Below are positions 3,266 to 58,199 of a stretch of 64,000 nucleotides of DNA, piece after piece (positions within the stretch are counted from its first letter, which is position 1; the number at the start of each line of letters is the position of its first letter). The position numbers and the translations under genes are program-made. The notes under the pieces are model-generated. The model did not search any database and was not told where the DNA came from. It saw nothing but the letters and a program-made list of their open reading frames with translations. The stretch is from contig JAWOEX010000032.1 of NCBI GenBank assembly GCA_046482545.1, positions 128,001 through 192,000 of the forward strand, written 5' to 3'. Source of the stretch: Candidatus Thorarchaeota archaeon (GTDB taxonomy: Archaea; Asgardarchaeota; Thorarchaeia; Thorarchaeales; Thorarchaeaceae).

Positions 3266-4573
3266 ATGACTAGCCTAGAGGAACTACGCGGTATCAATGC
3301 GAGATGCATTCACTGTCGTGCCTGTCAGTATGCTTACGCAGATGAGCCTGATAGAGAAGGCGAAACAGAAGAATACACGGGAATGATGCTATCATGTCCT
3401 GGCGGAAACTTGTATGGCTGGGAAGGCTACTACAACAGTGGTAAAATGTGGATGGCCCGCGCTTATCTCGAAGGCGACTTGGAGCCTAGCCAAGAGATGC
3501 TGGAGGTCATGGAAGCTTGCACTACCTGTGGTCTTTGTGGAGAACAGTGTGAGAACTACATCGACACAGTGGACATCATTGAGGAGCTTAGAGCTGCGAT
3601 TATCGAGGATGGTGTTGAACCGCTTAAGAGGCACAAAGTAATCAATGACAGAGTGCTTGAAGAAGATAAAAGAAATCCTTACAACGAAGCCAGAGATGAG
3701 CGCATCGCGTGGTATGATGGTGAAGTAGATCTCAAAGATGCCAGCGTTGCATATTATGTTGGCTGTACTGGCGCCTACAGGCAGCAAGATATCGCCAAGC
3801 ATACTGCAAATATCTTGAAGAAACTTGATGTCGATTTTACAGTCCTCTCTGATGAGGTTTGTTGCGGTTCGCCTATTTTGCGTACAGGCCAGAAAGACAC
3901 CTTCAAGAAGGTCATGAACGAGAACCTAGGGATGTTCAAGGATTTCGATCTTGTGGTCTTCTCGTGTGCAGGTTGTTATCGGACTTTTCGTGTAGACTAT
4001 CCCAAGCAAAGCGGAGAACCCCTGCCTTTCAAGGTTGCACATACCCTTGACATCGTACATGATATGATTCAGGATGGGGAGCTAGAAATTGAAACTCCGT
4101 ATAATAAGAAAGTCACTTGGCATGACCCCTGCCACACTATACGGCATATCGGCTTGGACATAGAAAAACGGATCCTCGATGAATCTGATAATTGGCTCAT
4201 AGACAGCAGGAAAGCGGCGAAAGCCAAAGAGGCTTGGTACGAGCGACCAAGAGAGGTTATTCGTGCTATTCCGGGGGTCGATTTCAGAGAGATGTACAGG
4301 ATTAAGGGTGACAGCTTCTGCTGCGGTGCTGGAGGCGGGGTGAAGACACAGTTCCCCGATATGGCACTTGCTACAGCCAAGGAACGCGTCAAAGAGGCAG
4401 CTTCGACCGGCGCTGAGGTATTAATGACATCATGCCCCTTTTGTATAACAAATTTTCAGGACGCGATCGCCGCCCTGAAAGAAGAAGAGGAAGAGACCGG
4501 AAAAGATCTGTCAGCTATTGGGTCAAAACTGGAAGTTGTAGAACTACTAGAACTGATGGATCGACTCATCTGA
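3266..4573 (+). CDS. Fe-S protein with two [4Fe-4S] motifs and two CCG domains (GlcF/HdrD-like)
   Basis: CIHCRAC, CTTCGLCGEQC, YYVGC...CCG...CAGC and WHDPC...CCGAGGG...SCPFC. Co-oriented behind the FAD oxidoreductase. Confidence 0.88.
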   Translation: MTSLEELRGINARCIHCRACQYAYADEPDREGETEEYTGMMLSCPGGNLYGWEGYYNSGKMWMARAYLEGDLEPSQEMLEVMEACTTCGLCGEQCENYIDTVDIIEELRAAIIEDGVEPLKRHKVINDRVLEEDKRNPYNEARDERIAWYDGEVDLKDASVAYYVGCTGAYRQQDIAKHTANILKKLDVDFTVLSDEVCCGSPILRTGQKDTFKKVMNENLGMFKDFDLVVFSCAGCYRTFRVDYPKQSGEPLPFKVAHTLDIVHDMIQDGELEIETPYNKKVTWHDPCHTIRHIGLDIEKRILDESDNWLIDSRKAAKAKEAWYERPREVIRAIPGVDFREMYRIKGDSFCCGAGGGVKTQFPDMALATAKERVKEAASTGAEVLMTSCPFCITNFQDAIAALKEEEEETGKDLSAIGSKLEVVELLELMDRLI

Positions 4574-5713: not shown

Positions 5714-5892
5714 GTCAGCTGTTTACTACATCCGGGTATATAGAGTTTCTACGCGGGTCATCCACATAACTGGACGGCTAGGAGGACACCTCCGGATGCA
5801 AATTGGGATAGTTGAAATCGAAATTAGAGTCAGAGATAAAAGGCGTGCTTCGTAATCTGAAAAGGTATCCATTGATATACTAATTGGGTGAA

Positions 5893-6810
5893 ATGATGAC
5901 AGAACCTGAGATTGAAGATAAGAGACTGACACTGGAAGAAGCTGCTCAGAAGGTTCCCAACGGTTCGGATATGTTTTGGGGGGGTTTTGGTTATCAACGC
6001 CCACCTATTGCTTTTGCGTACGAGCTAGTGCGGCAACAGAAACGCAACATCACAATCCATACATGCGGTTCAGAGGTTGACCTAGAGGTCATGGCTGGTG
6101 CCGGTGTGGCGAACAGATTCGAAATCGCATTCGAGGCGATTGAGGCTCTTGGATTGGGGTACAATATGCGAAGGCGAGTGGCCGAGGGTGCAGTAGAGGT
6201 TGAGGATTACAGTAATCTGGCCATGGCATTACGTTTCTATGGTGGTGCACTCAACGTTCCTTTCATGCCCATCCGGAGTCTCATGGGAACAGACATGGCA
6301 CGTCTCTCTCGCTATCGCGGCGATAAGAAGCTGGCAGTTATTGATTGTCCGTTCACAGGCGAGAAGATTTGCCTTGTTCCTTCTTTACAGCCTGATTTCA
6401 GTATCGTCCACGTTCAACGAGTGGATCGGACTGGTAACGCACAAATTGACGGTATTGTGGGAGAGGATATAGAAGGTTCCAGATGTGGTAAGAAGTTGAT
6501 TGTTCTAGCTGAAGAACTGATAGATGAGTCCGAGGTTAGGGCGACCCCAGATCGGACGAGCATTCCAGCGATGTATGTTGATTACATAGTGATTCTTCCA
6601 TTTGCTGCCCATCCTATGCAATGTCATAATTACTACGATTATGATTTATCGTTCCTGCAGATGTTCCATACGATGAGCAAGACTGAAGAAGGATGGCAGG
6701 ACTACCTAGAGAAATACATACTGGGTGTGGATAATCACATGGAGTATCTGAATCTTGTCGGCTGGGACAGCCTGATGGATCTCAAAGCAAAGAAACCTTG
6801 GGGGTATTAG
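5893..6810 (+). CDS. Family I CoA-transferase, subunit A (glutaconate CoA-transferase alpha-like)
   Basis: GGFGYQRPPIAF, GALNVPFMP, CPFTGE, HVQRVDRTGNAQ and AHPMQCHNYYDYD. Confidence 0.85.
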   Translation: MMTEPEIEDKRLTLEEAAQKVPNGSDMFWGGFGYQRPPIAFAYELVRQQKRNITIHTCGSEVDLEVMAGAGVANRFEIAFEAIEALGLGYNMRRRVAEGAVEVEDYSNLAMALRFYGGALNVPFMPIRSLMGTDMARLSRYRGDKKLAVIDCPFTGEKICLVPSLQPDFSIVHVQRVDRTGNAQIDGIVGEDIEGSRCGKKLIVLAEELIDESEVRATPDRTSIPAMYVDYIVILPFAAHPMQCHNYYDYDLSFLQMFHTMSKTEEGWQDYLEKYILGVDNHMEYLNLVGWDSLMDLKAKKPWGY

Positions 6811-6811
6811 A

Positions 6812-7585
6812 ATGGTAGAATATAGCAAAATAGAGTTTCTAACAGCATGTGCTTCGCGTCACGTTCGAGATGGAGAATTCGTTTTTGGTGGTACTGGATT
6901 ACCACTTCTTGCTGCCCTTTTGGCAAAAGAGACGCATGCCCCTGATTCCAAGCTCATATCTGAAGCTGGTTTCATTGATGCGAGACCGCGAAATGTCCCC
7001 CTCTCAGTTGCTGATTCTCGGTATCACTACGGAAGCTCTGCATCGATTGGTCTCATTGAGACTCTCGGTTTTATTCTACAGGCTGGAAAAGTCGATGTCG
7101 GTTTTCTGGGTGCTGCCCAGATAGATGAATATGGAAATCTGAATACGAGCTACATTGGTGATTACGATAAGCCCAAGGTGAAGTTGCCGGGTAGTGGAGG
7201 AGGGAATGACATTGCTTCTTCAGCGAAGCGGCTGATAATCATGATGACCCATGACAAACGCAAATTTGTCAAAAAACTGGATTATATGACGAGTCCTGGC
7301 CATCTCCAGGGTCCAGGCTCACGGGAGAAATGGTCATTGGTGGGCGGAGGTCCCGAGGTCGTTATTACTGACATGTGCCAGATGGATTTCGACCCTGATA
7401 GTCTGAAAATCCGTTTGAAATCCGTTCATCCTGGGTACGAGATAGAGGATGTTCTTGAGAATGTGATGTTCGACTTGATAGTGCCTGATGATGTTCCCGT
7501 GACCCAAGAACCTACTCAGGAGCAGATAGATATCATGCATCGCCTTGACCCTAATGGTATCTACTTAGGTAAAGGTGCACGCTGA
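6812..7585 (+). CDS. Family I CoA-transferase, subunit B (GctB-like)
   Basis: GTGLP, ISEAG (catalytic Glu position), GFLGAAQIDEYGNLNT and LPGSGGGND. Starts 1 nt after subunit A. Confidence 0.88.
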   Translation: MVEYSKIEFLTACASRHVRDGEFVFGGTGLPLLAALLAKETHAPDSKLISEAGFIDARPRNVPLSVADSRYHYGSSASIGLIETLGFILQAGKVDVGFLGAAQIDEYGNLNTSYIGDYDKPKVKLPGSGGGNDIASSAKRLIIMMTHDKRKFVKKLDYMTSPGHLQGPGSREKWSLVGGGPEVVITDMCQMDFDPDSLKIRLKSVHPGYEIEDVLENVMFDLIVPDDVPVTQEPTQEQIDIMHRLDPNGIYLGKGAR

Positions 7586-11282: not shown

Positions 11283-11675
11283 TTGAATTCACGAAAGATT
11301 CGCGTGCTCATAGCTAAGCCGGGTCTAGATGGCCACGACCGGGGCGCCAAAGTAGTTGCAAGAGCTTTGCGGGATGCTGGCATGGAGGTAATTTATACTG
11401 GCCTGCGACAGACACCAGAGATGATTGTAGAGTCCGCTCTGCAAGAAGACGTTGATTGCATAGGACTAAGTATTCTGAGTGGCGCGCACAATGCTCTCTT
11501 CCCTAAGGTGACCAAGCTTCTGAAAGAGAAAGATGCGGATGATATACTGGTCATTGGTGGGGGTATCATACCTGAGGATGACATCCCTGGTTTGAAGGAT
11601 GCAGGGATTGCTGAGATATTCGGACCCGGTACTCCCTTGGTAGAGATTGCTGAGTACATCAGGTCCCATGTATAG
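11283..11675 (+). CDS. Methylmalonyl-CoA mutase small (B12-binding) subunit
   Basis: [10 protein letters not shown] (DxHxxG), GLSILSGAH and GGGIIP. Confidence 0.93.
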
Positions 11676-11704
11676 TACAGTATCTTATTGATGAGGTAGG
11701 CTAG

Positions 11705-12664
11705 TTGTCTGCTACTAAGTTGGTTAAAGGAGTCCTGAATGGCGAGCAAAGGGCATTGGCACGCTTGATTACCTTGATTGAAAATGAGGAGCCAATTGCC
11801 CAAGACGCCCTTAGTCAGCTGTATGGGCATACAGGTGAAGCTCATATTGTTGGTGTTACTGGGCCTCCTGGGTCAGGTAAGAGTACACTTGTCAACAAAC
11901 TAACAACTGTTTATCGAGACCGGGGCAAAACGCTTGGGATTATCTGTGTGGATCCTTCAAGTCCGTTCTCTGGTGGCGCGCTCCTTGGCGACCGAATTAG
12001 AATGCAGAAGCATACACTAGACGACAAAGTCTTCGTCCGGAGTATGGGAACACGAGGGCACCTAGGAGGGCTCTCAAGGGCAACATCAGATGCTGTTCGT
12101 GCGTTGGACGCTTTCGGAAAAGAAATTGTCATCGTCGAGACAGTTGGTGCTGGGCAGTCTGAGGTAGAAGTCATCGAGATAGCTCATACAGTCGTTGTTA
12201 CGGATGTTCCTGGAAGTGGGGACGACATTCAAGCAATCAAGGCTGGAATAATGGAGATTGCTGACATCTTTGTTGTTAACAAGTCTGACTTGCCAGGTGC
12301 CGATAAGAAGGTAGTTGAGCTCAATGCCATGCTAGACATTGCTCCCGAGGATGAGGAATGGAGACCCCCTGTGTTGAAGACTAACTCGCGAACGGGAGAG
12401 GGGGTTGAACAGCTAGTTGAAAAAATCGGTGAGCATATGCGATATCTGAAGGCAACTGGCCTTCTTGAAGAGAAAGGGCTTGAACGGAGCCGAGAAGAGT
12501 TGGAAGATATCATGGAATACAAGCTAACTCAAGAGCTTCTCGGGAAACTGCGTGGTAGCGCTGAGTACGAGGAAGCCATCACGAAAATTGCGAAACGTGA
12601 TAACGACCCTTACACTATAGCGGAGAAATTGATTGTGAAGTTTCTTGCACAACAGGAGAAATAG
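11705..12664 (+). CDS. meaB: Mutase-associated G-protein chaperone MeaB/ArgK
   Basis: GPPGSGKST, DPSSPFSGGALLGDRIRM, ETVGAGQSE and NKSD. Confidence 0.93.
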   Translation: MSATKLVKGVLNGEQRALARLITLIENEEPIAQDALSQLYGHTGEAHIVGVTGPPGSGKSTLVNKLTTVYRDRGKTLGIICVDPSSPFSGGALLGDRIRMQKHTLDDKVFVRSMGTRGHLGGLSRATSDAVRALDAFGKEIVIVETVGAGQSEVEVIEIAHTVVVTDVPGSGDDIQAIKAGIMEIADIFVVNKSDLPGADKKVVELNAMLDIAPEDEEWRPPVLKTNSRTGEGVEQLVEKIGEHMRYLKATGLLEEKGLERSREELEDIMEYKLTQELLGKLRGSAEYEEAITKIAKRDNDPYTIAEKLIVKFLAQQEK

Positions 12665-14344
12665 GTGGTATCATTGGAGGATGATGAAATAAACCAGCAA
12701 TACAAGGAGTGGCAGGAAGGTCCCGTCAAGAAGACAGTCAATCGGTTTCCTGAGCGGAAGGAGAATTTTTCTACAGACTCAGACATACCCATTAACCGCC
12801 TCTACACACCCATGGACATCAAAGACATTGATTACTCGGAAGACTTGGGGTTTCCAGGACAGTTTCCGTATACGCGAGGGGTCTACACAACCATGTACCG
12901 GGGCAGACTCTGGACCATGCGACAATACAGTGGGTTCGGAACAGCCCAAGAAACCAATCAAAGATTCAAGTTCCTGCTTGAGCAGGGACAGACTGGATTA
13001 TCTGTAGCTTTTGACTTACCAACACAGGTCGGCTATGATTCTGATCATCCTCTTGCAGAGGGCGAAGTCGGTAAGGTTGGTGTGGCAATCGACTCCTTGG
13101 CCGATATGGAAATTCTGTTCGCTGGCATCCCATTAGATGAAGTTAGTACCTCCATGACTATCAATGCTCCTGCAGCCATACTCTTGGCTATGTATGTGGC
13201 ACTGGCAGAGAAACAGGATGTTGCAATGGAGAATCTAAGGGGAACCATACAGAACGACATTCTCAAGGAGTATGTGGCAAGAGGGACATACATCTTCCCA
13301 CCAGAACCGTCAATGCGGTTGATTACCGATGTTTTCGAATATTGTTCAGAACACATGCCCCTCTGGAACACCATTTCAATCAGCGGCTATCATATTCGAG
13401 AAGCAGGCTCAACATCTGTTCAAGAAATAGCCTTCACGCTTGCTAATGGCATTGCCTATGTAGAGGCTGCTCTGGATGCGGGTCTTGATGTTGATAGATT
13501 TGCTTCTCGCCTTTCGTTTTTCTTTGGTTCTCATAGTCGCTTTTTTGAGGAAATAGCCAAGTTCCGTGCTGCGCGTCGTCTTTGGGCTCGCATAATGAAA
13601 GATAGATTTGGTGCCAAGGACGACAAATCATGTAGGTTACGATTTCACACGCAGACAGCTGGTTGTACCCTTACAGCTCAACAACCAGATAATAACATTG
13701 TCCGGGTAACTCTTCAGGCACTCCAAGGTGTGCTGGGCGGAACGCAATCTCTCCACACAAACTCGAGAGATGAAGCCTTGTCACTACCAACTGAAGAATC
13801 TGTCCAGATTGCTCTGAGAACTCAGCAGATTATAGCACATGAAACTGGTGTAGCTGATACAATTGATCCACTGGCAGGGTCTTACTTCGTTGAAACCTTG
13901 ACGAACTGCATAGAAGAAAACGCACGGGAATACCTGCGTCAAATCGATGATATGGGTGGGTCACCAGCAGCAATACAGAAAGGCTTCATTCAGCGAGAAA
14001 TTAGTGAAAGTGCATACAAACATCAACAAGAAGTCGATCACGGCGAGTGTATAGTTGTTGGTGTGAATGAGTTCACCGTAGATGAGGAACAAAAATTCGA
14101 CTACCTGCGTGTTGATCCAGAAGTGGAGCAACAACAGGTACGGCGACTGAAAAAGCTACGTAACAACCGTGATGAAAGAACCGTCAGAGATGCGCTTGAC
14201 AGTCTCCGGAATGCAGCTCGGGGTGATGATAATCTAATGCCTCCAATACTTAGTGCTGTCAGAAGATACGCTACCCTTGGAGAAATCTGTTCTGTTCTTC
14301 GTGATGAGTTTGGCGAATACCAAAGTCCAGAAACAATGAGGTAA
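12665..14344 (+). CDS. Methylmalonyl-CoA mutase large (substrate-binding) subunit
   Basis: [19 protein letters not shown] (Tyr specificity residue), [13 protein letters not shown] (Arg), [12 protein letters not shown] and QSLHTN. The Tyr/Arg pair indicates methylmalonyl-CoA rather than isobutyryl-CoA mutase. Confidence 0.93.
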
Positions 14345-14350
14345 CAGAAG

Positions 14351-14758
14351 ATGAAACCAGAAATGATAGACCACATTGGAATTGCTGTAGAACGCATAGA
14401 GAAGTGGATTCCTTACTATCGGGACACACTCGGAATGAATTATCTTGGTTCAGAGGAGGTTTCGGGCCAAAAGGTGCGTGTCGCCTTTTTTGAGATTGGT
14501 GAGAGTCGAATAGAACTTTTAGAACCCACATCGAAAAAAAGCCCTATTGCACGATTCCTTTCGAAAAGGGGATCAGGCATGCATCACATTGCAGTACGCG
14601 TTGATGATATCGATAACGCCATCGAAGATTTGGTTGTAGATGAAACGAGAATGATTGACAGTAAGGCACGCTCGGGTGCACACGGCATGAAGATAGCTTT
14701 CGTTCATCCAAAATCAACCGGCGGTGTCCTTCTAGAGCTCTGTGAGCATACAGAATAG
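14351..14758 (+). CDS. mce: Methylmalonyl-CoA epimerase
   Basis: IDHIGIAV, IELLEP, GMHHIA and FVHPKSTGGVLLEL. Last gene of the mutase operon. Confidence 0.93.
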   Translation: MKPEMIDHIGIAVERIEKWIPYYRDTLGMNYLGSEEVSGQKVRVAFFEIGESRIELLEPTSKKSPIARFLSKRGSGMHHIAVRVDDIDNAIEDLVVDETRMIDSKARSGAHGMKIAFVHPKSTGGVLLELCEHTE

Positions 14759-21321: not shown

Positions 21322-22110
21322 ATGTTTGATTCCCGTGCCATTGTAGATGGCTTAGAAACCAAATACATCAAGCCCAGGTTTCATCATTTCGAAGAAGTGG
21401 ACTCAACGAATGAGACAGCCAAGAATAAAGCCCTGAGCGGCGCAGATTACGGTCTATTCATTGTTGCAGACGAACAGGTAGCTGGAAAAGGCAGGATGAA
21501 CCGAACTTGGGTTTCACCTCCTGGAGGGCTATACTTCTCCGTCTATCTTCAAGCTCCACTTAATGGAACTCCCTCGCCTATACTGGGAATGCTTGTAGCT
21601 TGTGCTACTACTGAGGCTATCCGCCAGGTGACCGGTGTAGATTCAACGATAAAATGGCCCAATGATCTTATGATTGGCGAAAGGAAGGTTGGCGGAATAC
21701 TCTGTGAAGCTATCTCAAGAGACGGCAAAGTCATCGGAGTTGTAGTTGGAGTCGGCATTAATCTGAATACCCGTGTGAGTGGATTATCTGCTAAATTCAG
21801 ATATCCCCCAACTAGTCTAATTGAAGAGACTGGAAAGACCATCTCAAGGGAGGAATTGATGCGAAGCATCCTTATGTCTATTGACAAGCGAATCGGAATA
21901 GTGAAGGATAGACGTTCCTACAACGATACTCTTGAGGAATTGAAATGGCTGAACAGGATTCTCGGTTATCCAGTGGTAGTTCATACGAGAGATGAAACAG
22001 TGGAAGGAACTGCCGTGGATATTCGAGATGATGGCGCATTAGTCGTTGAGACAGCATCCGGAACTCGAAAACCCATAACTATTGGGGATGTTACGAGGGT
22101 GATTCTTTAG
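21322..22110 (+). CDS. birA: Biotin-[carboxylase] ligase (class I, no HTH)
   Basis: VDSTN, QVAGKGRMNRTWVSP, KWPND, KVGGIL and GVGINL. Confidence 0.93.
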   Translation: MFDSRAIVDGLETKYIKPRFHHFEEVDSTNETAKNKALSGADYGLFIVADEQVAGKGRMNRTWVSPPGGLYFSVYLQAPLNGTPSPILGMLVACATTEAIRQVTGVDSTIKWPNDLMIGERKVGGILCEAISRDGKVIGVVVGVGINLNTRVSGLSAKFRYPPTSLIEETGKTISREELMRSILMSIDKRIGIVKDRRSYNDTLEELKWLNRILGYPVVVHTRDETVEGTAVDIRDDGALVVETASGTRKPITIGDVTRVIL

Positions 22111-48116: not shown

Positions 48117-49664
48117 ATGAAAGACGACCCGTTTGAGAAACTCCATGAAATGCGAAAGAAGGCAAAGCTCGGAGGCGGAAAGAAACGCATTGAACGCCAG
48201 CACGAGAAAGGAAAACTGACCGCTCGTGAACGGATTAATAGGCTTCTTGACCCCGATTCTTTTGTGGAAATTGACGAGTTTGTTGTGCATAGGGAAGACA
48301 AATTCGGCATGGATGAGAAGAAAATACTTGGGGACGGAATAGTCACGGGCTACGGTACGATAAACGGCCGAAAAGTCTTCGTTTTTAGTCAGGATTTCAC
48401 CGTTTTTGGCGGCTCGCTATCAGAAATGTTCGGAAAGAAGATTTGCAAAGTTATGGACCTTGCATTGGAGTCAGGCAACCCTATTATCGGTTTGAATGAC
48501 AGCGGCGGAGCTAGAATTCAAGAAGGAATCAAATCTCTTAAAAGTTATTGTGATGTTTTTAGGAAAAACACACATGCTAGTGGGGTGATTCCCCAGATTT
48601 CTGCTGTAATGGGGCCATGTGCTGGGGGAGCAGTGTACAGCCCTGCTGTAACTGACTTTACTCTGATGGTGAAGGAGACTGCTCATATGTTCATTACCGG
48701 TCCAGAGGTTGTTAAGACCGTGACAGGTGAAGAAATATCGTTTGAAGAACTTGGTGGGGCAATGACCCACGCATCTAAGAGCGGCGTGGCGCATCTGGTA
48801 AGCGAAGATGAAGATCATTGTTTTGACCAAATACGTTCCCTTCTTAGCTTCATGCCTTCCAATAACCTTGAGGATCCGCCCCGCGTTGAGACAGGACACG
48901 CACCTGATGATATCGACGAGTCAATTGACGAAGTGGTGCCCCAAGACCCCAACAAACCATATGATATGCGTGATGTTGTTACAAAGCTGGTAGACAACGG
49001 CGAATTCTTTGAGATACACGAACACTGGGCTCAGAACATGACAGTTGGCTTTGCGAGGTTCGATGGGCGACCAGTGGGCATCGTGGGTAACAATCCTGCG
49101 CATCTTGCCGGCACCATCGATATCGATGCTTCTGACAAATGTTCACGGTTCGTGAGATTCTGTGATGCATTCAATATACCTGTCATAACTTTCATGGATG
49201 TACCGGGGTACCTGCCTGGTACGGAACAAGAATGGGGTGGCATCATCAGACACGGAGCGAAAATCCTCTACGCATTTGCTGAAGCCACAGTGCCTCTCAT
49301 CACGATTATCACTCGCAAGGGCTATGGCGGAGCCTACGATGTTATGAGTAGCCGCCACATTGGTGCGGACTTGGTTTATGCATGGCCTGGCTCTGAGATT
49401 GCCGTTATGGGGCCACAGGGAGCTATCAACATCATCTTCCGGAAAGAGATTAGAGACGCTGAAGATAAGGAAGCAAAGCGCCAAGAGCTCGTGGATGAGT
49501 ACAGAGAAGAATTCGCGCATCCATATGTTGCCGCAGGGCTAGGATACATTGACAAGGTGGTCTTCCCCCGTGAGACGCGACCCCTGATTTGTAAAGGCCT
49601 TGACATTCTGGAAACGAAACGTCAGGATAGACCTCCCAAGAAACATGGCAATATCCCCCTATAG
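48117..49664 (+). CDS. pccB: Acyl-CoA carboxyltransferase subunit (PccB/MmdA/transcarboxylase 12S-like)
   Basis: GKLTARERI, QDFTVFGGSL, DSGGARIQEG, GPCAGGAVY, DVPGYLPG and C-terminal KKHGNIPL. Confidence 0.93.
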   Translation: MKDDPFEKLHEMRKKAKLGGGKKRIERQHEKGKLTARERINRLLDPDSFVEIDEFVVHREDKFGMDEKKILGDGIVTGYGTINGRKVFVFSQDFTVFGGSLSEMFGKKICKVMDLALESGNPIIGLNDSGGARIQEGIKSLKSYCDVFRKNTHASGVIPQISAVMGPCAGGAVYSPAVTDFTLMVKETAHMFITGPEVVKTVTGEEISFEELGGAMTHASKSGVAHLVSEDEDHCFDQIRSLLSFMPSNNLEDPPRVETGHAPDDIDESIDEVVPQDPNKPYDMRDVVTKLVDNGEFFEIHEHWAQNMTVGFARFDGRPVGIVGNNPAHLAGTIDIDASDKCSRFVRFCDAFNIPVITFMDVPGYLPGTEQEWGGIIRHGAKILYAFAEATVPLITIITRKGYGGAYDVMSSRHIGADLVYAWPGSEIAVMGPQGAINIIFRKEIRDAEDKEAKRQELVDEYREEFAHPYVAAGLGYIDKVVFPRETRPLICKGLDILETKRQDRPPKKHGNIPL

Positions 49665-49795
49665 GTATGGAAGGACCCCCTCCTTCCTCGCTTCCTTTGT
49701 CATCTATTGACTTTATACAGTTGATATACCACATACCTGCATTCTAAACTCCTTATCACAAATACCAAAAGGTCAAAACGTGAAATAGACATGAT

Positions 49796-50071
49796 ATGAG
49801 AAAGGAGGTGAAAAAGAAAATGGAGGTAGTTAAACGAAGTGGCGAACGCGAGACTTTCATGCCCGAGAAGATTACCGTGAGCGCGGTGAAGGCAGGAGCG
49901 TCTTATGGTACTGCACGAAGCATTGCAGGTTCAGCCCAATCAGAATTCGAAAGCATTGCAGAGACTGCACAAATCAGAGACTATGTTCTAACAGAGCTTC
50001 GTTCGAGAGGCGAAAAATCTGCAGCTCAGTCTTGGGAGCGTTATGATCAGGAAAAGAAAGGTCGGAAGTGA
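49796..50071 (+). CDS. Stand-alone ATP-cone domain protein
   Basis: VVKRSGERETFMPEKI...T.QIRDYVL.EL: ATP-cone signature. Confidence 0.8.
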   Translation: MRKEVKKKMEVVKRSGERETFMPEKITVSAVKAGASYGTARSIAGSAQSEFESIAETAQIRDYVLTELRSRGEKSAAQSWERYDQEKKGRK

Positions 50072-50706
50072 CCATAGTAATGGATTTGGAGCAACTGCTT
50101 GAGGAAAAAGGGCGGCTGTTTTCGGAAGAACTTGGTATTGATGTGGAGAATGAACCGTTCAAATGGTTCATCGCATCGGTGCTTTTTGGTGCTCGGATTT
50201 CAACCGACATCGCGAAGAGAACCTATCGAGAATATGAGGAAAAGGGTCTTACAACACCAGAAGCCATTGATTCCGCATGGCGCTACACGTTAATTAGAAC
50301 ACATGGAAATGGCGGATACGCAAGATACGATGGCATAACAGCCGACTACATGAAATCCATTTCTGAGAAGATACTCGATGAATATGATGGCGACATAAGG
50401 AATGTAGACCGACAAAGTGATTCGTCTAACGAGCTAAAAAAGAGGCTTGAGGAGTTCGAGGGAGTAGGTCCAGTGACTACTAAGATTTTTCTTCGGGAAC
50501 TGCGAGGAATCTGGCAAAATGCGGATCCGGAGCTAACCGATATTGAAAAGAACGCCGCCAAGGACCTCGGTTTCATTTCTAATGGGGAGAATGCAACTGA
50601 CAAAGTCAAACAATTCTGGCAGGATAGTCGTACTGAAAGATTTGATTTTCGAAATCTACAAGCGGCATTGGTACGGCATGGGCTGAATATCAGAAGGTCC
50701 GAGTGA
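50068..50706 (+). CDS. HhH-GPD superfamily (DNA glycosylase/endonuclease III-like) protein
   Basis: FKWFIASVLFGARIS, GGYARYD and the HhH motif LEEFEGVGPVTTKIFLRE. Confidence 0.78.
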   Translation: MTIVMDLEQLLEEKGRLFSEELGIDVENEPFKWFIASVLFGARISTDIAKRTYREYEEKGLTTPEAIDSAWRYTLIRTHGNGGYARYDGITADYMKSISEKILDEYDGDIRNVDRQSDSSNELKKRLEEFEGVGPVTTKIFLRELRGIWQNADPELTDIEKNAAKDLGFISNGENATDKVKQFWQDSRTERFDFRNLQAALVRHGLNIRRSE

Positions 50707-50768
50707 TGATTCTGTTCATAGGCCTTCCGAAAAGGGTGATTGAATTGTGAGCCTTTCCAAGAAAGCAA

Positions 50769-51980
50769 TTAGAAGTGCTCAATGAGCCATGGCCTAGCTT
50801 TGGGGAACCACTCGTCAAGAAAGTCTGGGGCCTTTTCTTTCAACATACCGAGCTCGAAGAGCTCATCGCACGATAGTGTGCCATACAAAAGACAAGCCAA
50901 ACTACCTATGCTCATTCTGATATCTGGTTTGGACTTGCCTTTCGGTTCAACAGAAAGCTCGCCATTTCGGTTTGTAACCTGAAATGTTTGTGAATTCCAT
51001 TCGAACTGGTCATCAATTACTCCAATTGCTACTGAGCCGCTGTTGCTTACAGAGATGCCATTGAACGCTTCTTCAACATCAACTATTCTTGCCATTGTAA
51101 TAAAGCGAGCCTCTACCCTTGGAATGTTTATTCCTTCTATCCAGTGGTAGTATGTTTGAGAAAGAGGAGTAACCGGCATTCTGACTTCTATTATTTGATC
51201 TTGATGCAATGAAATGAAACTCAGCAAGGCTTTCAGGGCCTTTGGGTTTTTCCACAATATTTCTTGCACATTCATGGTTCCGACCTTATCCCTATTTTCG
51301 AACTGACCATAGCCCTTCTTGCGATATGCGAGATACCCTTCTGGCTCAGACTTCGGCCCATATGCTATTGCAAGATTGCCGTGAAACCAGATTTTGTGTT
51401 CATCCCACCGCTTCTTTGACCGTTTTGCAGCACCATGGGTTCGTGATACCACATGCTCGTGGATTCCTTTGCAGGCCGTCCAGCCTTCTTTGGGGTCTAC
51501 TCTTTCTATTCGATAGTCGGCTAGATTCTTTGAATACACTAGGTCTTTGGGATTGAATGTGAACGTGTACCATGGGGATAACTTCACATAACCCATCGAG
51601 CTGTAGAAGCTATCTTTGAATGGATATAACATGCTCACTGCGTACCCTTCCTCCTGAAGCTCTTTGAGGGATTGCAGCATAATCTCTCTAACGTATCCGA
51701 GACGCCGAGTTTCAGGAGCACTGGCAACCATGCTGACAGCTACCATTTTCTTCCAAGTACCACGCACATTTTGTTCAAGTGGAATCATTCTTGCGTGTGC
51801 ACGAGGTTTACCATCGCTAACGGCAAGGAAGAATTCATTTGAAACATCTATTTCTCTTAGACATTTCCCCATTCTTTCGTCTTCATCTGGTGGTATCGCG
51901 TAGCTATATCGATTCAATTTGATTATGTCTTCAATGTCTTCGGGTTTACCTCGACGCACTATCATGATGCTCATATCCAA
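50769..51980 (-). CDS. Eis-like GNAT acetyltransferase with SCP2-like C-terminus
   Basis: VASAPETRRLG, SMLYPF..FYSSMGY, MARIVDV and C-terminal Phe. Confidence 0.85.
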   Translation of the reverse strand: MDMSIMIVRRGKPEDIEDIIKLNRYSYAIPPDEDERMGKCLREIDVSNEFFLAVSDGKPRAHARMIPLEQNVRGTWKKMVAVSMVASAPETRRLGYVREIMLQSLKELQEEGYAVSMLYPFKDSFYSSMGYVKLSPWYTFTFNPKDLVYSKNLADYRIERVDPKEGWTACKGIHEHVVSRTHGAAKRSKKRWDEHKIWFHGNLAIAYGPKSEPEGYLAYRKKGYGQFENRDKVGTMNVQEILWKNPKALKALLSFISLHQDQIIEVRMPVTPLSQTYYHWIEGINIPRVEARFITMARIVDVEEAFNGISVSNSGSVAIGVIDDQFEWNSQTFQVTNRNGELSVEPKGKSKPDIRMSIGSLACLLYGTLSCDELFELGMLKEKAPDFLDEWFPKARPWLIEHF

Positions 51981-52101
51981 CAGTTTCTTTCGCCTGTCAA
52001 AGGGGTATTTTACTGATTTGCATCAAGCCATCTGAGCACACAATAGCTTACTCAAAGGCCAGATTGGTCAAAACAATATCTCTTTACTCTATTCTCTGGC
52101 A

Positions 52102-52632
52102 TTAGCTGTCTAGCTTGAGCGAGAAGGTTCTTTCGGCTTTCTCAAGCTTTGGTTTGATTACAACTCTGCAGTAGCCCCGGCCCGGGTATTTCTTGTAGTA
52201 GTCTTGGTGATGGTCTTCAGCTGGATAGAACTTCTTTAATGGCCTGATTTCCGTGACTATGGGATTATCGTACTTGCCGTTTTCATTGAGTTCCGTTTTC
52301 TTCTGCTCAGCTTTGCGTTTCTGTTCTTCGTTGTGATAGAATATGGCCGACCTGTACTGAGTCCCGACATCGTTTCCCTGCCGATTCAGGCTTGTCGGGT
52401 CGTGTGTCTCAAAGAATATCTCCAGTAGTTCTTCGTAGCTGATTTCCTCCGGATTGTACTCAATCTGAACTACTTCAGCATGACCTGTATTTCCAGAGCA
52501 CACTTCTTCATATGTTGGATTTTTCACATCTCCGCCGGCATATCCCGAGGTAACGGATTGAACGCCTTTCATCCGCTGGAAGACTGCTTCAGTGCACCAG
52601 AAGCATCCTCCTCCAAATGTAGCTTTTTTCAT
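52102..52632 (-). CDS. msrA: Peptide-methionine (S)-S-oxide reductase
   Basis: GGGCFWCTE, SGYAGG, YEEVCSG.TGHAEVV, HDPT, GTQYRS and AEDHHQDYY. Confidence 0.95.
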   Translation of the reverse strand: MKKATFGGGCFWCTEAVFQRMKGVQSVTSGYAGGDVKNPTYEEVCSGNTGHAEVVQIEYNPEEISYEELLEIFFETHDPTSLNRQGNDVGTQYRSAIFYHNEEQKRKAEQKKTELNENGKYDNPIVTEIRPLKKFYPAEDHHQDYYKKYPGRGYCRVVIKPKLEKAERTFSLKLDS

Positions 52633-52714
52633 ATTAGTAGTATGGTTAATAGTCTTTAACAACTAATGGATACGTGAGCTGCTTCCCTTCTGGCTATCGC
52701 ATTCATCGCTTTTC

Positions 52715-53332
52715 CTATTGCTTTCCTGCAATGTATTCGAGGGTGACCATCCTGTAATCTAAGGTTCTCAGCTCAGTAGTTTTTTTCTCCTTGAGTACTA
52801 TTTCCATCCTGTCAAAATACTGGTCAGGTTCATTCTTCTCATAATAGCTATGAATTGTTGGTTCTCCATGTTCAGTAGATTTCCATTCGCCGGGACCAAC
52901 CTGATCGCCCTCACCACATTGTTGATCGTCTACTGAGAGGAAATTTACGTAAAGGTATCCTGGTGTCTTGAGTACCCTTCTCATTTCTCTCATTGCTTTT
53001 GCTGAATCGGTTTTGGTGAGGTGAAAAATCGAGTTATACGAGTATACGAGACCGAAGCTCTCATTATCGAAAGGAATTTCTCTCATATCTCCGATTTGAA
53101 TATCCAAATCAAGTCCGTGCCGTTCGCAGAATTCACTCGCTTTCTTGACCTGTTCATCGGATATATCGATTCCGTGTGTTTCATAGCCCAATCTATCAAA
53201 TAGCGCCAGTGAAGGACGCAGACCTCCAGCGCCGCAGTCCAGTACAGTCCTGTCAATCTCATTGTCTCTTTCTAATCGTTGAAGGAGGTACAGGAATTTG
53301 TATACGTTGGGAGGAAACAGTGCGTTGTACAT
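52715..53332 (-). CDS. Class I SAM-dependent methyltransferase
   Basis: VLDCGAGG, GIDIS and GDMREIPFDNESF. Confidence 0.85.
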   Translation of the reverse strand: MYNALFPPNVYKFLYLLQRLERDNEIDRTVLDCGAGGLRPSLALFDRLGYETHGIDISDEQVKKASEFCERHGLDLDIQIGDMREIPFDNESFGLVYSYNSIFHLTKTDSAKAMREMRRVLKTPGYLYVNFLSVDDQQCGEGDQVGPGEWKSTEHGEPTIHSYYEKNEPDQYFDRMEIVLKEKKTTELRTLDYRMVTLEYIAGKQ

Positions 53333-53396
53333 ATTGAACGTCGACGTCAGACTCTTCTTTCTAAGTTTTCCCCCTCACACGATTTTCAAATCCAAA

Positions 53397-53418
53397 ATTT
53401 AGAACACATGTTCTAAAT
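53397..53418. promoter_or_regulatory. Perfect 10-bp inverted repeat, candidate transcription-factor operator
   Basis: ATTTAGAACA-CA-TGTTCTAAAT in the divergent spacer upstream of the carboxyltransferase operon. Confidence 0.55.
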
Positions 53419-53507
53419 CAGATGAACAACACGCGCCTCTAGCCAGGCGCTTCGGTTCTGAACAATAGTGCTAAATAGGGTGTTTCGAGCTGTGGGGCGA
53501 GCTGGCA

Positions 53508-55091
53508 ATGTCAAAACTTCAAATCACGGACACGACCCTCAGAGATGCACATCAATCGCTTCTTGCAACGAGGATGCGGACTGAAGATATGCTGCCGATT
53601 TGCGAGGAGATTGACAAGGTGGGCTACTGGTCCCTAGAAATGTTTGGCGGGGCAACATTCGACAGTATGATGAGGTATCTCGATGAAGATCCATGGGAAC
53701 GAGTTGAGAAGCTCCGAGAAGTCATGCCAAACTCCAAATTCCAGATGCTGTTGAGAGCGTCCAATGTCGTTGGATATCATATATACCCCGACGATGTGCT
53801 GGAAGCCTTCGTTATTGAAGCGGTTGACGTAGGTATTGACATATTTCGTATATTCGATGCGCTCAATGATTTACGAAACATGCGCGCGGCCATGGACTTC
53901 GTGAATCGTGAGGGTGGCCACGTTCAGGCAAGCTTCTGTTATACTTTGAGCCCTTACCACAACAATGACAAGTTCGTGGAGATGGCTAAGGACTTGTACT
54001 CGATGGGAGCGGATTCTATTTGCATCAAGGACATGGCTGGACTGATATCGCCCAAGAACGCCTATGAACTTGTTACCTTGCTGAAAGACGACTTGGACAT
54101 ACCCATTCAGCTTCACTCACATAGCACCAGTGGTATGGCTTCTATGGCTTATCTCAAGGCTGCGGAGGCAGGGGTTGATGTGGTTGATTGTGCGATATCG
54201 CCGTTGTCAATGAGAACATCACAGCCGGCCGTAGAATCCATTGTTGAAGCATTGAAGGGGACACCCCGTGATACTGGACTTGATATCAAGCTGCTTTCCA
54301 AAATTGCTGATTACTTCAGAGAGATTTGGGGAAAATACAAGCAATACGAAGGTAGCCTTAAGGGAGTAAACCCACAGGTGCTTCAGTTTCAAATTCCTGG
54401 TGGTATGCTTTCCAATCTTGATAATCAGCTCAGAGAACAGGGAGCTCTTGACCGATATGATGAAGTCTTAGAGGAAGTGCCTAAGGTGAGAGCTGAACTT
54501 GGGTATCCTCCGCTTGTTACGCCATCAAGTCAAATCGTTGGTACCCAAGCCACACTCAACATCATCACTGGTGAACGATACAAGGTCATCCCTCACGAGG
54601 TAAAGCAGTACATCCGTGGTTATTATGGAAGACCGCCTGCGGAAATCGATTCAGAGATTCAGCAGAAAGCCATTGCCGATGAAGAACCACTTGACTGCCG
54701 TCCCGCGGACAAACTAGAACCTGGTCTTCCTAAGGCCAAAGAAGCCTTGAAAGATATTCCACATGAACCTCGGGATGAAGTTTCGTATTCCCTTTTCCCG
54801 CAGTATGCCCTTGAATTCTTGAAACGAAATGCTCAACGTAAAGCTCGTGGAGATATGTCTCCTGAGCTTGAAGCCGCGCTTATTTCAGCCGTTCTTTACT
54901 CCTCTAGGACTGGACCTGGCACAAACAGCAGGAGAGGTACCGGCGAATCATGGGGAATTGAAGGCAGGGCAGATCTCATGGAATCGAGAGCCTCTGCCTT
55001 GACATCCAGGTCTTGGAGTTCTACGAAATCTCCGTGGAGTGCGTATGGAAGGAAACGCATGATGGAATCAAGGAAACGGAGTGATCTATGA
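53508..55091 (+). CDS. Pyruvate/oxaloacetate carboxyltransferase without biotinyl domain (transcarboxylase 5S / OadA / PycB-like)
   Basis: TLRDAHQSL.ATRM, GGATFD, IKDMAG, HSHST, QIPGGM and PPLVTPSSQIVG. No EAMKM domain. Confidence 0.9.
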   Translation: MSKLQITDTTLRDAHQSLLATRMRTEDMLPICEEIDKVGYWSLEMFGGATFDSMMRYLDEDPWERVEKLREVMPNSKFQMLLRASNVVGYHIYPDDVLEAFVIEAVDVGIDIFRIFDALNDLRNMRAAMDFVNREGGHVQASFCYTLSPYHNNDKFVEMAKDLYSMGADSICIKDMAGLISPKNAYELVTLLKDDLDIPIQLHSHSTSGMASMAYLKAAEAGVDVVDCAISPLSMRTSQPAVESIVEALKGTPRDTGLDIKLLSKIADYFREIWGKYKQYEGSLKGVNPQVLQFQIPGGMLSNLDNQLREQGALDRYDEVLEEVPKVRAELGYPPLVTPSSQIVGTQATLNIITGERYKVIPHEVKQYIRGYYGRPPAEIDSEIQQKAIADEEPLDCRPADKLEPGLPKAKEALKDIPHEPRDEVSYSLFPQYALEFLKRNAQRKARGDMSPELEAALISAVLYSSRTGPGTNSRRGTGESWGIEGRADLMESRASALTSRSWSSTKSPWSAYGRKRMMESRKRSDL

Positions 55092-55618
55092 TGAGCCCAG
55101 ATTACTTGCTGGACATTGATGGGCAGGAACATGAAGTAGACATTGACTGTTTGGACGAGGGTGGCCTTCTGGTCGTGAAAGTGGGCTCACAGAGCTTCAC
55201 TCTCAAAGCAGAAGAGGCTGATGAGGGTGGCTGGTCCGTAAATGATACAACGAACAACTATCATCTGAAAATCATAGAGAAATCGGGGAAAAACGCAGTT
55301 GTGGAATTAAATGGTCACGAGTACGATGTAGAGTGGTCCCGAAAGCGAGAGGAACACACATCATCCGCTGCTCGAGCCGAATCGGAGAAATCCACTGAGG
55401 CGGTAGCAGGTGGTGTGTATCCACCCATGCCCGGAACTATAACGGAGGTTCATGTCGACGTTGGAGACGACGTGGAGAAGGGACAAACCGTATGTATTCT
55501 GGAAGCTATGAAAATGTTCAATGAAATGAAGTCTCCTGCAGATGGAACTATTAAGGAACTACATGTGAAAGAGGGCTCCAAGGTCACACCAAACGATTTG
55601 CTTGCTGTCATCGAATAG
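55088..55618 (+). CDS. Biotin carboxyl carrier protein
   Basis: PMPG...LEAMKMFNE biotinylation motif. Overlaps the upstream gene by 4 nt (ATGA). Confidence 0.92.
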   Translation: MMSPDYLLDIDGQEHEVDIDCLDEGGLLVVKVGSQSFTLKAEEADEGGWSVNDTTNNYHLKIIEKSGKNAVVELNGHEYDVEWSRKREEHTSSAARAESEKSTEAVAGGVYPPMPGTITEVHVDVGDDVEKGQTVCILEAMKMFNEMKSPADGTIKELHVKEGSKVTPNDLLAVIE

Positions 55619-55621
55619 AAG

Positions 55622-56797
55622 GTGGCTATACTGCCGAAAGCGTTTGTAACTGGGGCAGGAATGACGCGATTCGGTGTTCTTGAAGATTCAATCACAGAGC
55701 TGGCTGTGAATGCCGCTACTCGAGCGGTTGAGGATTCTGGCTCTATTGGCAAAGATATAGACTACTTGATTATTGGTTCTCAAAATCCTGCTGAATTTAC
55801 GGGAATTGACCACCTATCAACGCTCTTAGCTGATTGTCTAGGTATTGTGCCAGCAGCGGCTACCCGTGTCGAGACAGGACCTTCTTCTGGGGCGAGCGCT
55901 TTCGAAGAGGCATTTGCTCTGGTCAAGGCTGGACTTGCTGATTTGGTGCTTGTCATTGGTGTTGAAAAGATGTCCAAGGTGAATCGGAGTATCGCTTCCC
56001 GTATTCTGGCAAAAATGATGTCCTATGAAAATGAGACTCGATACGGTGCGACACCTGCTGCGTTGGCTGCTATGATGGCACGTCGGTATATGCACGACTA
56101 TGGCGTAACCCGGGAACAGCTGTCCTTGGTTCCGGCCAAGGCCCACCGAAATGGGCACAAGAACCACCTTGCACATTTTCAGAAGGAGATTACAGTTCAA
56201 GAGGTCACCCATTCCAGAAAGGTAGCCGACCCCCTAACACTGTTCGATTGCTGTCCCACTTCCGACGGAGCTGCAGCAGCAGTTGTTGTATCCGAGGAGA
56301 AGGCCCGCGAGTTGAGACTGCTCAAGAGTGCAGCAGAGGTCATAGGGGTAGGTCACGCAACAGACTACCTAGCCGTTCAACATCGCCAGTCGCTTACATC
56401 CATGAGCGCTACGATAGAGGCGGCTGCTCGTGCCTACGACATGGCAAAGATTGAGCCCCATGATGTTGATGTCTGCGAGGTTCATGATGCCTTTTCAGTA
56501 TTCGAGTTAATCAATATGGAAGATCTTGGATTGGCAAATCGGGGAGCTGCAATCCACATGGTGGCAGACGGCACTACTGAGGTGGATGGCAGTCTGCCGG
56601 TGAATCCTACCGGTGGTTTGAAGGCACGCGGCCATCCCACAGGAGCCACAGGCTTAGCACAAATACGAGATGCATTCAATCAGTTGATGATGAAGGCTCC
56701 CGAACAGTTGCAGACTGGCAGCCCCGAAGTGGCCTTGTGTCACAATATCGGCGGATTTGGCAACAATATCGTAGTGACAATCCTAGAACGGCGATAA
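55622..56797 (+). CDS. SCP2-type thiolase-fold protein lacking the canonical catalytic Cys
   Basis: GMTRFG, GVEKM, CCPTSDGAAA, EVHDAF, NPTGGL..GHPTGATG and HNIGG. The nucleophile loop reads VETGPSSG. Confidence 0.85.
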   Translation: MAILPKAFVTGAGMTRFGVLEDSITELAVNAATRAVEDSGSIGKDIDYLIIGSQNPAEFTGIDHLSTLLADCLGIVPAAATRVETGPSSGASAFEEAFALVKAGLADLVLVIGVEKMSKVNRSIASRILAKMMSYENETRYGATPAALAAMMARRYMHDYGVTREQLSLVPAKAHRNGHKNHLAHFQKEITVQEVTHSRKVADPLTLFDCCPTSDGAAAAVVVSEEKARELRLLKSAAEVIGVGHATDYLAVQHRQSLTSMSATIEAAARAYDMAKIEPHDVDVCEVHDAFSVFELINMEDLGLANRGAAIHMVADGTTEVDGSLPVNPTGGLKARGHPTGATGLAQIRDAFNQLMMKAPEQLQTGSPEVALCHNIGGFGNNIVVTILERR

Positions 56798-57035
56798 ATT
56801 CTCGAAAAAGGCCTATTTCACCTGTAGAGTGCTTGGGATTTTCAGCATGCTATTCATCCACATATTTCTTATTAATCTCTTATAACTCTTGATTGTTATA
56901 GAGTGAGCCTACATGATGTTGTGTCATATCCGTCATCATGATGGAGCTATTGGATAGTACTGGTCCTTAATAAGGACAGGCGGTTTAGTGACTACCGATA
57001 GGGAGAACGGCTCTAAAACTGGAGCGAAGAGGAAA

Positions 57036-58199
57036 ATGCCGAAAGGATTAGCGGTACTACGTTGGGATGATGAACTAGGCCCCGTTGTTACTGCCAAAAC
57101 ACCCAAGAAACTACAGCTTGGATTGGATCCAACAACAAGCATGCGGGTGTATGGAATTGCAACATTGGGCGAGACTGAGGAATCACAGAAACCTGGATTC
57201 AGTACCCTGAATTTCGATGAATTCAGAATGGCTGTTTATTATGGCGGTCTGAATATGCATCTAAAAGGTCTTCCTTCCATGGTATTTCTCGTATTGGAGC
57301 CCAGCGAAAATCCAGAGATCTACAAGAATGCTCTTCCTGAAATAGCGACTCAGATTTTCTTGAGCACTGAAGATGACGCCTATGTAGATATGCTTCCTAA
57401 GATGTATAGTCAACTAGCTCGATATACGAAGATGACGTTTGAGCAAAGACAAGCTTCCATTCTCAGCGATGATGTCCGTAGAGAGATACTCCGAACACTC
57501 ATGAGAGACGGAACCATGGAATCTTCGGACCTTGAACAGATAATCCTTGATGAAGTTGGAAAGAGGATTGATGTGGATATGGTTCTTCGCCCCTTGGTGA
57601 AGATGGGGATTATAGCGACTGGTTGGGTTGAAGGATTATCAACTGAAGTCATCTATCTGACGAGGGCAACTCTGCTATTGAGAAGAATCTCACGAAACAC
57701 TATAGCTGCTGTCAAGTCTGGTGCGCTCCCCCAGGATGTTGCAGATAGCTACCTTGAAGCCAGCAGGCGTTACCATCGCGATTATGTTGCCCGTCTACGC
57801 AAGGATTTGACTAAAACGATATGGACCGATGCGGAACAACTGGCTAACTTCATTCTTGATTTTGATGCTCATGACGTGATAGAGATTCTGCGCGAAGGCC
57901 CTCAGCAATTCGAGCACTTGCCTAGCCTGCTTGACATGACAAAATCGCAACTCAAAAAACAGGTGAAGCGTCTCGAACGAGCAAATATCGTATCCACTGT
58001 GAATGACGAGGAGGGTCGGGAACACGTGCTACTGAAAAGCAATCCCGAGGTAGCCACGGTTTATCCGGAATGGCTGATTCAACGTACTGTTGACCAGTAC
58101 AATGAGGAAATCATTCCTAGCAGACAAGCAATACACTATCTTGAGATACTGAAGAAATCACATCCAAGTCAAGCAGCAGCTACAGCGGAGGTTGAGTAG
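57036..58199 (+). CDS. Longin/uDENN-like N-terminal domain fused to two winged-helix domains
   Basis: GLAVLRWDDELGPVV (longin-like strand + GP turn), plus wHTH-like ILSDDVRREILRTL...LVKMGII and DVIEILREGP...LKKQVKRLERANIV. Confidence 0.65.
   Translation: MPKGLAVLRWDDELGPVVTAKTPKKLQLGLDPTTSMRVYGIATLGETEESQKPGFSTLNFDEFRMAVYYGGLNMHLKGLPSMVFLVLEPSENPEIYKNALPEIATQIFLSTEDDAYVDMLPKMYSQLARYTKMTFEQRQASILSDDVRREILRTLMRDGTMESSDLEQIILDEVGKRIDVDMVLRPLVKMGIIATGWVEGLSTEVIYLTRATLLLRRISRNTIAAVKSGALPQDVADSYLEASRRYHRDYVARLRKDLTKTIWTDAEQLANFILDFDAHDVIEILREGPQQFEHLPSLLDMTKSQLKKQVKRLERANIVSTVNDEEGREHVLLKSNPEVATVYPEWLIQRTVDQYNEEIIPSRQAIHYLEILKKSHPSQAAATAEVE

Follow-up and report, generated by a model that had tools for sequence, protein, structure and literature searches.

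Gene content of the locus

The 64,000-nucleotide stretch analysed here (the window) derives from a Candidatus Thorarchaeota genome of 3.05 Mb (98.9% complete, 2.4% contaminated) and encodes two carboxyltransferases (CTs), one of the acyl-CoA and one of the keto-acid (pyruvate/oxaloacetate) type, together with a separate biotin carrier. All three genes are single-copy in the genome. The acyl-CoA CT gene is located 3.8 kb upstream of the keto-acid CT gene, with five other open reading frames (ORFs), two of them on the minus strand, in between, and the start of the carrier gene overlaps the stop of the keto-acid CT gene as ATGA. The window also contains the gene for the biotin protein ligase BirA and, more than 33 kb upstream of the CT genes, a methylmalonyl-CoA mutase cluster (Table 1). 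All genes named in a first-pass annotation of this DNA, made from the sequence alone, were recovered as intact ORFs. Nearly all of the named proteins closest to the keto-acid CT (70–77% identity) stem from Candidatus Thorarchaeota, and our comparisons within the family are based on 36 relatives, which, like all genomes considered here, are metagenome bins. Short contigs, mostly at least 99% alike, in salt-lake RNA libraries cover all three genes and the genes between them; such contigs cannot show transcription or its level.

Two carboxyltransferases share one biotin carrier

The acyl-CoA CT matches PF01039 with an E-value of 1e-198. Its best matches in the Protein Data Bank (PDB) are beta chains of propionyl-CoA carboxylase (PCC; 1vrg, 1xnv), with the 12S structure 1on3 ranking lower (E 7e-179), which confirms the first-pass assignment and places the protein among the 12S/PccB-type subunits of transcarboxylase (EC 2.1.3.1). 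Asp411 occupies the position of PccB-D422, and the same residue is present in the other aligned thorarchaeal sequences; an aspartate at this position favours propionyl-CoA. An identification as glutaconyl-CoA decarboxylase was rejected, because PccB-type matches dominate, as was a biotin-independent ScpB decarboxylase, for which only ~30% crotonase-family matches were obtained.

The keto-acid CT consists of an HMGL-like and a PYC_OADA domain, has the PDB matches 5ks8, 2nx9 and 1rqb and, as described in the first-pass annotation, lacks a biotinyl domain. Its residues R12, D13, Q16, K174, H203, H205 and T338 are invariant in 28 homologues and align with the matching residues of the 5S subunit of transcarboxylase, so that the protein has the make-up of an EC 2.1.3.1 keto-acid subunit, a stand-alone CT with its metal-binding and catalytic residues in place. 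The carrier has its biotinyl lysine at Lys142 (55511–55513), within the motif EAMKM, and together with BirA provides the separate MKM-bearing carrier and the ligase that characterize EC 2.1.3.1, in agreement with the earlier identification of both genes. It is the only biotinyl domain found in the genome; the next match, weak and 136 aa long, is read as glycine-cleavage H protein. A single biotinyl domain and a single ligase serve both CTs.

Neither biotin carboxylase (BC; PF00289, PF02785) nor the sodium-pump beta subunit OadB/MmdB (PF03977) gave a match in the genome, in searches for which control genomes were positive, and Asgard BC and Asgard OadB sequences used as queries found nothing in it either. 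The only PF02786 match was rejected as a BC, as it is the beta subunit of succinyl-CoA ligase (SucC). The lack of both proteins, which the first-pass annotation had stated for the window, extends to the whole genome and to the relatives (BC 0/36; OadB 0/36 over the cut-off), and the transcarboxylase-type reading has thus survived the genome-wide search that had been proposed as a means to refute it. Each of the CTs was found in 33 of the 36 relatives. By the same search, BC was detected in six other Asgard genomes and in none of the 37 genomes of the family, near-closed ones included. Among 43 Asgard genomes with an acyl-CoA CT, 35 contain a keto-acid CT and no BC, five a BC and no keto-acid CT, one (with 9% contamination) both, and two incomplete ones neither, counts that include kin, so that they describe a pattern but carry no statistical weight. 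In three relatives 17 bp separate the CT genes, and the distance is at most 24 kb in each of the 23 genomes in which the pair was scored on a single contig; three genomes of two other Asgard families, in which no BC or OadB was found, cluster the two CT genes and the carrier gene with those for mutase, epimerase and BirA.

Several relatives contain extra CT fragments, which may be either partial duplications or assembly artefacts: short pieces from the N terminus of the keto-acid CT, encoded a few kb before the full-length gene (G001 C61, G010 C53, G031 C10), and, in G031, several pieces of the acyl-CoA CT. A Heimdallarchaeota bin (L104/G060; 9% contamination) combines a transcarboxylase-type cluster, a BC and carrier encoded apart from it, and an OadB accompanied by a delta-like gene.

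Because the two CTs share one carrier without an ATP-using or sodium-pumping partner, an ATP-free swap of CO2 is the most likely function. From the gene content, the intact active-site residues and the absence of BC and pump, all directly read from the genome, we infer with a probability of roughly 0.8 that the trio forms one soluble, ATP-independent methylmalonyl-CoA:pyruvate transcarboxylase of 12S + 5S + 1.3S-like composition, in support of the first-pass reading. In this scheme, BirA would attach biotin to the single carrier, which would shuttle the carboxyl group between two sites: at the acyl-CoA CT it would be exchanged with methylmalonyl-CoA and at the keto-acid CT with pyruvate, yielding the overall reaction (S)-methylmalonyl-CoA + pyruvate <-> propionyl-CoA + oxaloacetate. 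Most likely, this transcarboxylase-type enzyme is real and family-wide. The usual labels (pyruvate carboxylase B, oxaloacetate decarboxylase alpha) assign to the Thorarchaeota an ATP-using or sodium-pumping enzyme that they cannot build.

A putative split docking domain

The C-terminal tail of the keto-acid CT (residues 450–527) comprises an Ala-rich helix (452–467) and two W-x(3-4)-GR hooks (W482, W510), the hook being duplicated in most thorarchaeal sequences. This tail is kept across the Thorarchaeota, other Asgard families and those Chloroflexota and Gaiellales loci that encode both CTs next to the carrier. Comparable helix-hook motifs occur at the C terminus of BC in BC-bearing Asgard archaea, in a free ORF of Bacillota clusters and in a free 72-aa gene between the 12S and 1.3S genes of a Propionibacterium-type operon. 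Among 10,184 ORFs, the best non-self matches of a tail profile were delta/OadG-type ORFs and one BC tail, with weak E-values of 6e-4 to ~2, and the profile did not find a second copy of the tail in the genome. The tail appears to resemble either an epsilon/delta subunit or the helix plus hook of the BT domain, the eight-strand barrel domain of PCC/MCC/GCC-type enzymes. The same operon of 12S, tailed keto-acid CT and BT-carrier is present in Chloroflexota and Gaiellales/Actinomycetota bins (L108, L135, L140, L148, L150), with no BC and no OadB found in three of these genomes.

In an AlphaFold2 model of the carrier, residues 5–85 form eight strands ahead of the biotinyl domain, as is typical of a BT domain. 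The protein gives weak Pfam matches to ACCA_BT and PCC_BT, and its top Foldseek matches are PCC alpha chains (BT-BCCP end), aligned over the full length (E 2.8e-12); a wide fold search was filled by matches to the biotinyl domain and therefore barely tested the barrel. BT domains consist of an eight-stranded barrel around a helix, plus a hook through which the CT subunit is bound (PMC4673880). The helix is Ala-rich and may come from another chain than the barrel (PMC5059739), and in mycobacterial AccE5 a helix enters a barrel of this kind and a hairpin at the C terminus inserts into the CT hexamer (PMC13612425).

Since the helix-hook motif of the tail and the fold of the carrier resemble the parts of a BT domain, we infer a PCC-type scaffold with the keto-acid CT in the place of BC. 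In such an assembly, the Ala-rich helix of the tail would fill the eight-strand barrel of the carrier, the two chains jointly making up a BT domain, and the hooks with their Trp residues would dock on the acyl-CoA CT hexamer, at the site occupied by BC in PCC. When the tail and the free 72-aa ORF were compared by profile, the alignment covered no more than the last hook (E 0.013, probability 3%). A complex prediction for the tail (428–527), the barrel (1–90) and one acyl-CoA CT chain returned a score of 0.08 and a mark of 0.32; it contained a single CT chain, whereas known hooks contact the oligomer, and we use it neither for nor against the model. If the docking model is true, a carboxylase could be converted into a transcarboxylase by relocating one helix-hook module, and the thorarchaeal trio would offer a simpler scaffold for a transcarboxylase holoenzyme structure.

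Relation to known biotin-dependent enzymes

The transcarboxylase of Propionibacterium freudenreichii (EC 2.1.3.1; 12S, 5S and 1.3S) likewise combines two kinds of CT with one free carrier, in the absence of BC and pump, and its 5S subunit shares the metal-binding and catalytic residues of the thorarchaeal keto-acid CT. However, the latter falls below the cut-off of the 5S family (NF008984; 548 versus 827 bits) and scores higher with the NCBIfam models of the PycB domain (726 bits) and OadA (671 bits); its database name is 'pyruvate carboxylase subunit B'. The phylogeny against 5S, OadA and PycB that the first-pass annotation had called for recovered the thorarchaeal keto-acid CTs as one clade (support 99/100), with deep nodes that did not resolve, and grouped the 5S and Klebsiella OadA rows together on long branches. 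In approximately unbiased (AU) tests, a clade of the keto-acid CT with 5S was rejected (p-AU 0.0004, on one 5S sequence over the cut-off, in a tree without archaeal PycB), whereas a single clade of all tail-bearing proteins was not (p-AU 0.30). Functionally, the keto-acid CT would correspond to 5S, without being its orthologue. Moreover, the thorarchaeal carrier has an eight-strand barrel where that of Propionibacterium has a short N-terminal segment, and the helix-hook is fused to the keto-acid CT, whereas a 5S-type operon has it as the free 72-aa gene.

The mmc cluster of Pelotomaculum thermopropionicum, which encodes the propionyl-CoA:oxaloacetate transcarboxylase Pot, and similar Bacillota clusters resemble the thorarchaeal set in containing a mutase, an epimerase, an acyl-CoA CT and a stand-alone keto-acid CT, the latter being 57–61% identical in related Bacillota loci. 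Unlike in Thorarchaeota, these clusters include a malate dehydrogenase (MDH), as reported for Pelotomaculum (PMC6046458), their keto-acid CT is tailless, and the delta-like ORF, where present, is separate. Clusters of the Peptococcaceae type (L107, L109, L114, L123, L131; mutase, epimerase, 12S-like CT, MDH, keto-acid CT) have no carrier or delta ORF between the CT genes. PCC alpha (BC-BT-BCCP), the split BT-like domain of two-subunit pyruvate carboxylase and mycobacterial AccE5 resemble the thorarchaeal proteins in the eight-strand barrel ahead of the biotinyl domain, in a PccB-type CT and, by motif, in the Ala-rich helix and Trp hook; the thorarchaeal set differs in lacking BC, in carrying helix and hook on the keto-acid CT and, in most sequences, in the duplication of the hook. 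The sodium pumps OadGAB and MmdABCD have homologous CTs, a free carrier and a delta-like tail, but also a beta subunit and a membrane anchor, which the thorarchaeal set lacks.

The idea of an Asgard transcarboxylase is not new, having been published in 2020. Imachi et al. (2020) took genes for methylmalonyl-CoA decarboxylase, a biotin carrier and pyruvate carboxylase as the basis for scoring propionate fermentation in Asgard archaea, and also named a ligase and a carrier associated with methylmalonyl-CoA transcarboxylase, thus reading the same trio as a transcarboxylase for propionate formation (PMC7015854). Beyond the passages of that paper considered here, our analysis adds the tail/barrel architecture, the exchange between BC and keto-acid CT, and the missing MDH. 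The literature searched, which left out most subscription journals, contained no account of these three points and no structure or assay of an archaeal transcarboxylase. Relative to known transcarboxylases, the new aspects are the subunit architecture and the MDH-free context. As three soluble subunits are easy to express, the 2020 inference is directly testable.

A possible propionate route without malate dehydrogenase

The genes for methylmalonyl-CoA mutase, MeaB and the epimerase, placed by the first-pass annotation at 11283–14758, pass their family cut-offs, and the large mutase subunit has the Tyr and Arg specificity residues of methylmalonyl-CoA mutase, so that the mutase and epimerase steps of a Wood-Werkman pathway are represented. 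The genome further contains succinyl-CoA ligase (SucCD) and, on contig C23, the class I fumarase and TfrAB-like reductase required for the fumarase and fumarate reductase steps. The surrounding cluster (C23:1152–15655) comprises a split class I fumarase, HdrA, MvhDGA, an HdrB-like gene and two fumarate-reductase-type flavoprotein/Fe-S pairs, one of them TfrAB-like. A second B12 mutase large subunit (C22:121575–123230), ~5 kb upstream of the window, has Phe/Gln residues and is isobutyryl-CoA-mutase-like. Both large-subunit types recur throughout the family, with two large subunits in nearly all relatives searched; since the genome has only one small subunit, it probably serves both.

The first-pass annotation had proposed a Wood-Werkman-type route, and the steps named above agree with it. 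However, the genome yielded no gene of the lactate dehydrogenase (LDH)/MDH family over the cut-off and neither Ldh_2 nor Mqo, and the MDH family PF02866 is absent from all 36 relatives. Because of this lack, the classic cycle is not closed, and the textbook scheme is not an appropriate depiction of propionate formation in Asgard archaea. The family I CoA-transferase, identified in the first pass at 5893–7585, is present (from 5884), yet it is closest to glutaconate CoA-transferase rather than to any known propionyl-CoA:succinate transferase; a second copy lies on contig C4, and just one protein resembles ScpC, a PF02550 member on C33 whose match is weak (E 1.7e-15). A classic cycle as in Propionibacterium, in which transcarboxylase, MDH, fumarase, fumarate reductase, propionyl-CoA:succinate CoA-transferase and mutase act together, would differ from our reading at the pathway level only. 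It would account for the mutase, epimerase, fumarase, TfrAB-like reductase and CoA-transferases, and Imachi et al. scored Asgard propionate fermentation on such genes (PMC7015854), but the missing MDH and the GctAB-like CoA-transferase make it improbable.

No pyruvate carboxylase is present, and bacterial phosphoenolpyruvate (PEP) carboxylase and citrate synthase were not found in the genome and were rejected; archaeal-type PEP carboxylase was not searched for. In the absence of pyruvate carboxylase and bacterial PEP carboxylase, the transcarboxylase would supply oxaloacetate from pyruvate without ATP while forming propionyl-CoA. We somewhat favour a net flow from succinyl-CoA via methylmalonyl-CoA to propionyl-CoA, with ATP-free formation of oxaloacetate from pyruvate. 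Propionyl-CoA could then yield ATP via an ADP-forming acyl-CoA synthetase, of which the genome contains several homologues, along with homologues of pyruvate kinase, glutamate dehydrogenase and malic enzyme. Without MDH, oxaloacetate could be converted to PEP by GTP-dependent PEP carboxykinase (PEPCK), which is encoded in the genome, PEPCK being present in 27 of 30 relatives. An alternative outlet would lead through transamination to aspartate, through aspartase to fumarate and through the TfrAB-type reductase to succinate. The aspartase is above the NF008909 subfamily cut-off and has strong aspA-model matches in 30 of 30 relatives, and together with an aspartate-aminotransferase-like gene it could offer such a bypass from oxaloacetate to fumarate.

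The transcarboxylase reaction is near equilibrium. A flow in the opposite direction, disposing of amino-acid-derived propionyl-CoA with aspartate-derived oxaloacetate, is conceivable but the less likely of the two. It is also tempting to speculate, at similarly long odds, that the transcarboxylase of Thorarchaeota and some other Asgard archaea arose separately from that of Propionibacterium, when a module was exchanged on a PCC scaffold and the BT helix and hook passed from BC to the keto-acid CT, and that it runs in an MDH-free propionate cycle via aspartate, aspartase and an Hdr/Mvh-linked fumarate reductase.

Weighing the transcarboxylase against other functions

Several observations weigh against parts of this interpretation. 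The CT, carrier and mutase genes do not form one operon in this genome, with five ORFs between the CTs and the mutase more than 33 kb away, a less compact layout than the 'gene set plus mutase operon' of the first-pass annotation suggests, although its genes are all present. The keto-acid CT scores nearer to the PycB and OadA models than to 5S, and gene content does not fix the direction of flux; for the aspartate bypass, the aminotransferase candidate is below its family cut-off. As for docking, the homology of the tail concerns a short motif with weak statistics, the tail has no match among Pfam families, and past residue 467 its predicted structure has a pLDDT below 50.

The homology of the CTs to OadA and MmdA and the resemblance of the tail to the MmdD/OadG tails of sodium pumps would also suit two uncoupled decarboxylases, whose carboxybiotin loses CO2 spontaneously or via a membrane pump unrelated to OadB/MmdB. 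We consider this quite unlikely, since PF03977 is absent from the genome and family, the three subunits contain no membrane segment (highest 19-residue hydropathy 1.5), and tails of this kind are likewise found on BC and within a transcarboxylase operon; furthermore, by established mechanism, two CTs on one carrier would exchange carboxyl groups anyway.

An equally small chance attaches to the same chemistry with a main CoA substrate other than propionyl-CoA (acetyl-CoA to malonyl-CoA, or butyryl-CoA), possibly tied to the thiolase-fold protein, lacking its nucleophile Cys, that is encoded after the carrier in nearly all thorarchaeal loci. The transcarboxylase of Propionibacterium accepts several acyl-CoAs, the acyl-CoA CT is the only one in the genome, and the isobutyryl-CoA-mutase-type paralogue would fit a different substrate. 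Arguing for propionyl-CoA are the Asp at the PccB-422 position of the aligned thorarchaeal sequences, given its role in specificity, and the fact that several Asgard and bacterial loci group methylmalonyl-CoA mutase and epimerase genes with those of the trio.

Ordinary ATP-dependent propionyl-CoA and pyruvate carboxylases, with a BC unassembled or diverged beyond recognition, would match the database name of the keto-acid CT and the fact that all genomes are metagenome bins, but are largely refuted and very improbable, because BC is highly conserved and was readily found in other Asgard genomes but not in this family, the Asgard BC query drew a blank, and the docking helix that BC would bring is already on the keto-acid CT.

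Neighbouring genes

The thiolase-fold gene starts 3 nt after the carrier gene. Its product keeps both His motifs, and none of the 29 related copies checked has the nucleophile Cys; a non-thiolytic role, of the aldolase or decarboxylase type, is possible.

Table 1. Features of the window, in window positions.
Feature	Position	Strand	Family or remark
Acyl-CoA carboxyltransferase (PccB/MmdA/12S-like)	48117..49664	+	PF01039; 515 aa from ATG, 518 from TTG 48108
Keto-acid (pyruvate/oxaloacetate) carboxyltransferase core, residues 1-449	53508..54854	+	PF00682 + PF02436; whole ORF 53508-55091
Putative docking tail fused to keto-acid CT, residues 450-527	54855..55091	+	Conserved in relatives; helices predicted at low confidence
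Biotin carrier, 176 aa	55088..55618	+	PF00364; BT-like barrel residues 5-85, linker, biotinyl domain
Thiolase-fold protein without nucleophile Cys	55622..56797	+	ETGPSSG where EAACASG expected
Biotin protein ligase BirA, single copy	21322..22110	+	TIGR00121 above cut-off
B12-binding mutase small subunit, single copy	11283..11675	+	TIGR00640
MeaB GTPase chaperone	11705..12664	+	TIGR00750 above cut-off
Methylmalonyl-CoA mutase large subunit	12665..14344	+	TIGR00641; RQYSGF, KEYVARG motifs
Methylmalonyl-CoA epimerase	14351..14758	+	TIGR03081 above cut-off
Two-subunit family I CoA-transferase, GctAB-like	5884..7585	+	PF01144; PDB 1poi_A, 1poi_B

Downstream of the thiolase-fold gene, a 403-aa gene (56988–58199, plus strand) is followed by ~5.8 kb without a long listed ORF up to the end of the window. 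At the opposite end (117–4573), a class III aminotransferase gene lies beside genes for an FAD-binding oxidoreductase and a CCG/Fe-S protein, which form a glycolate/lactate dehydrogenase-like pair.

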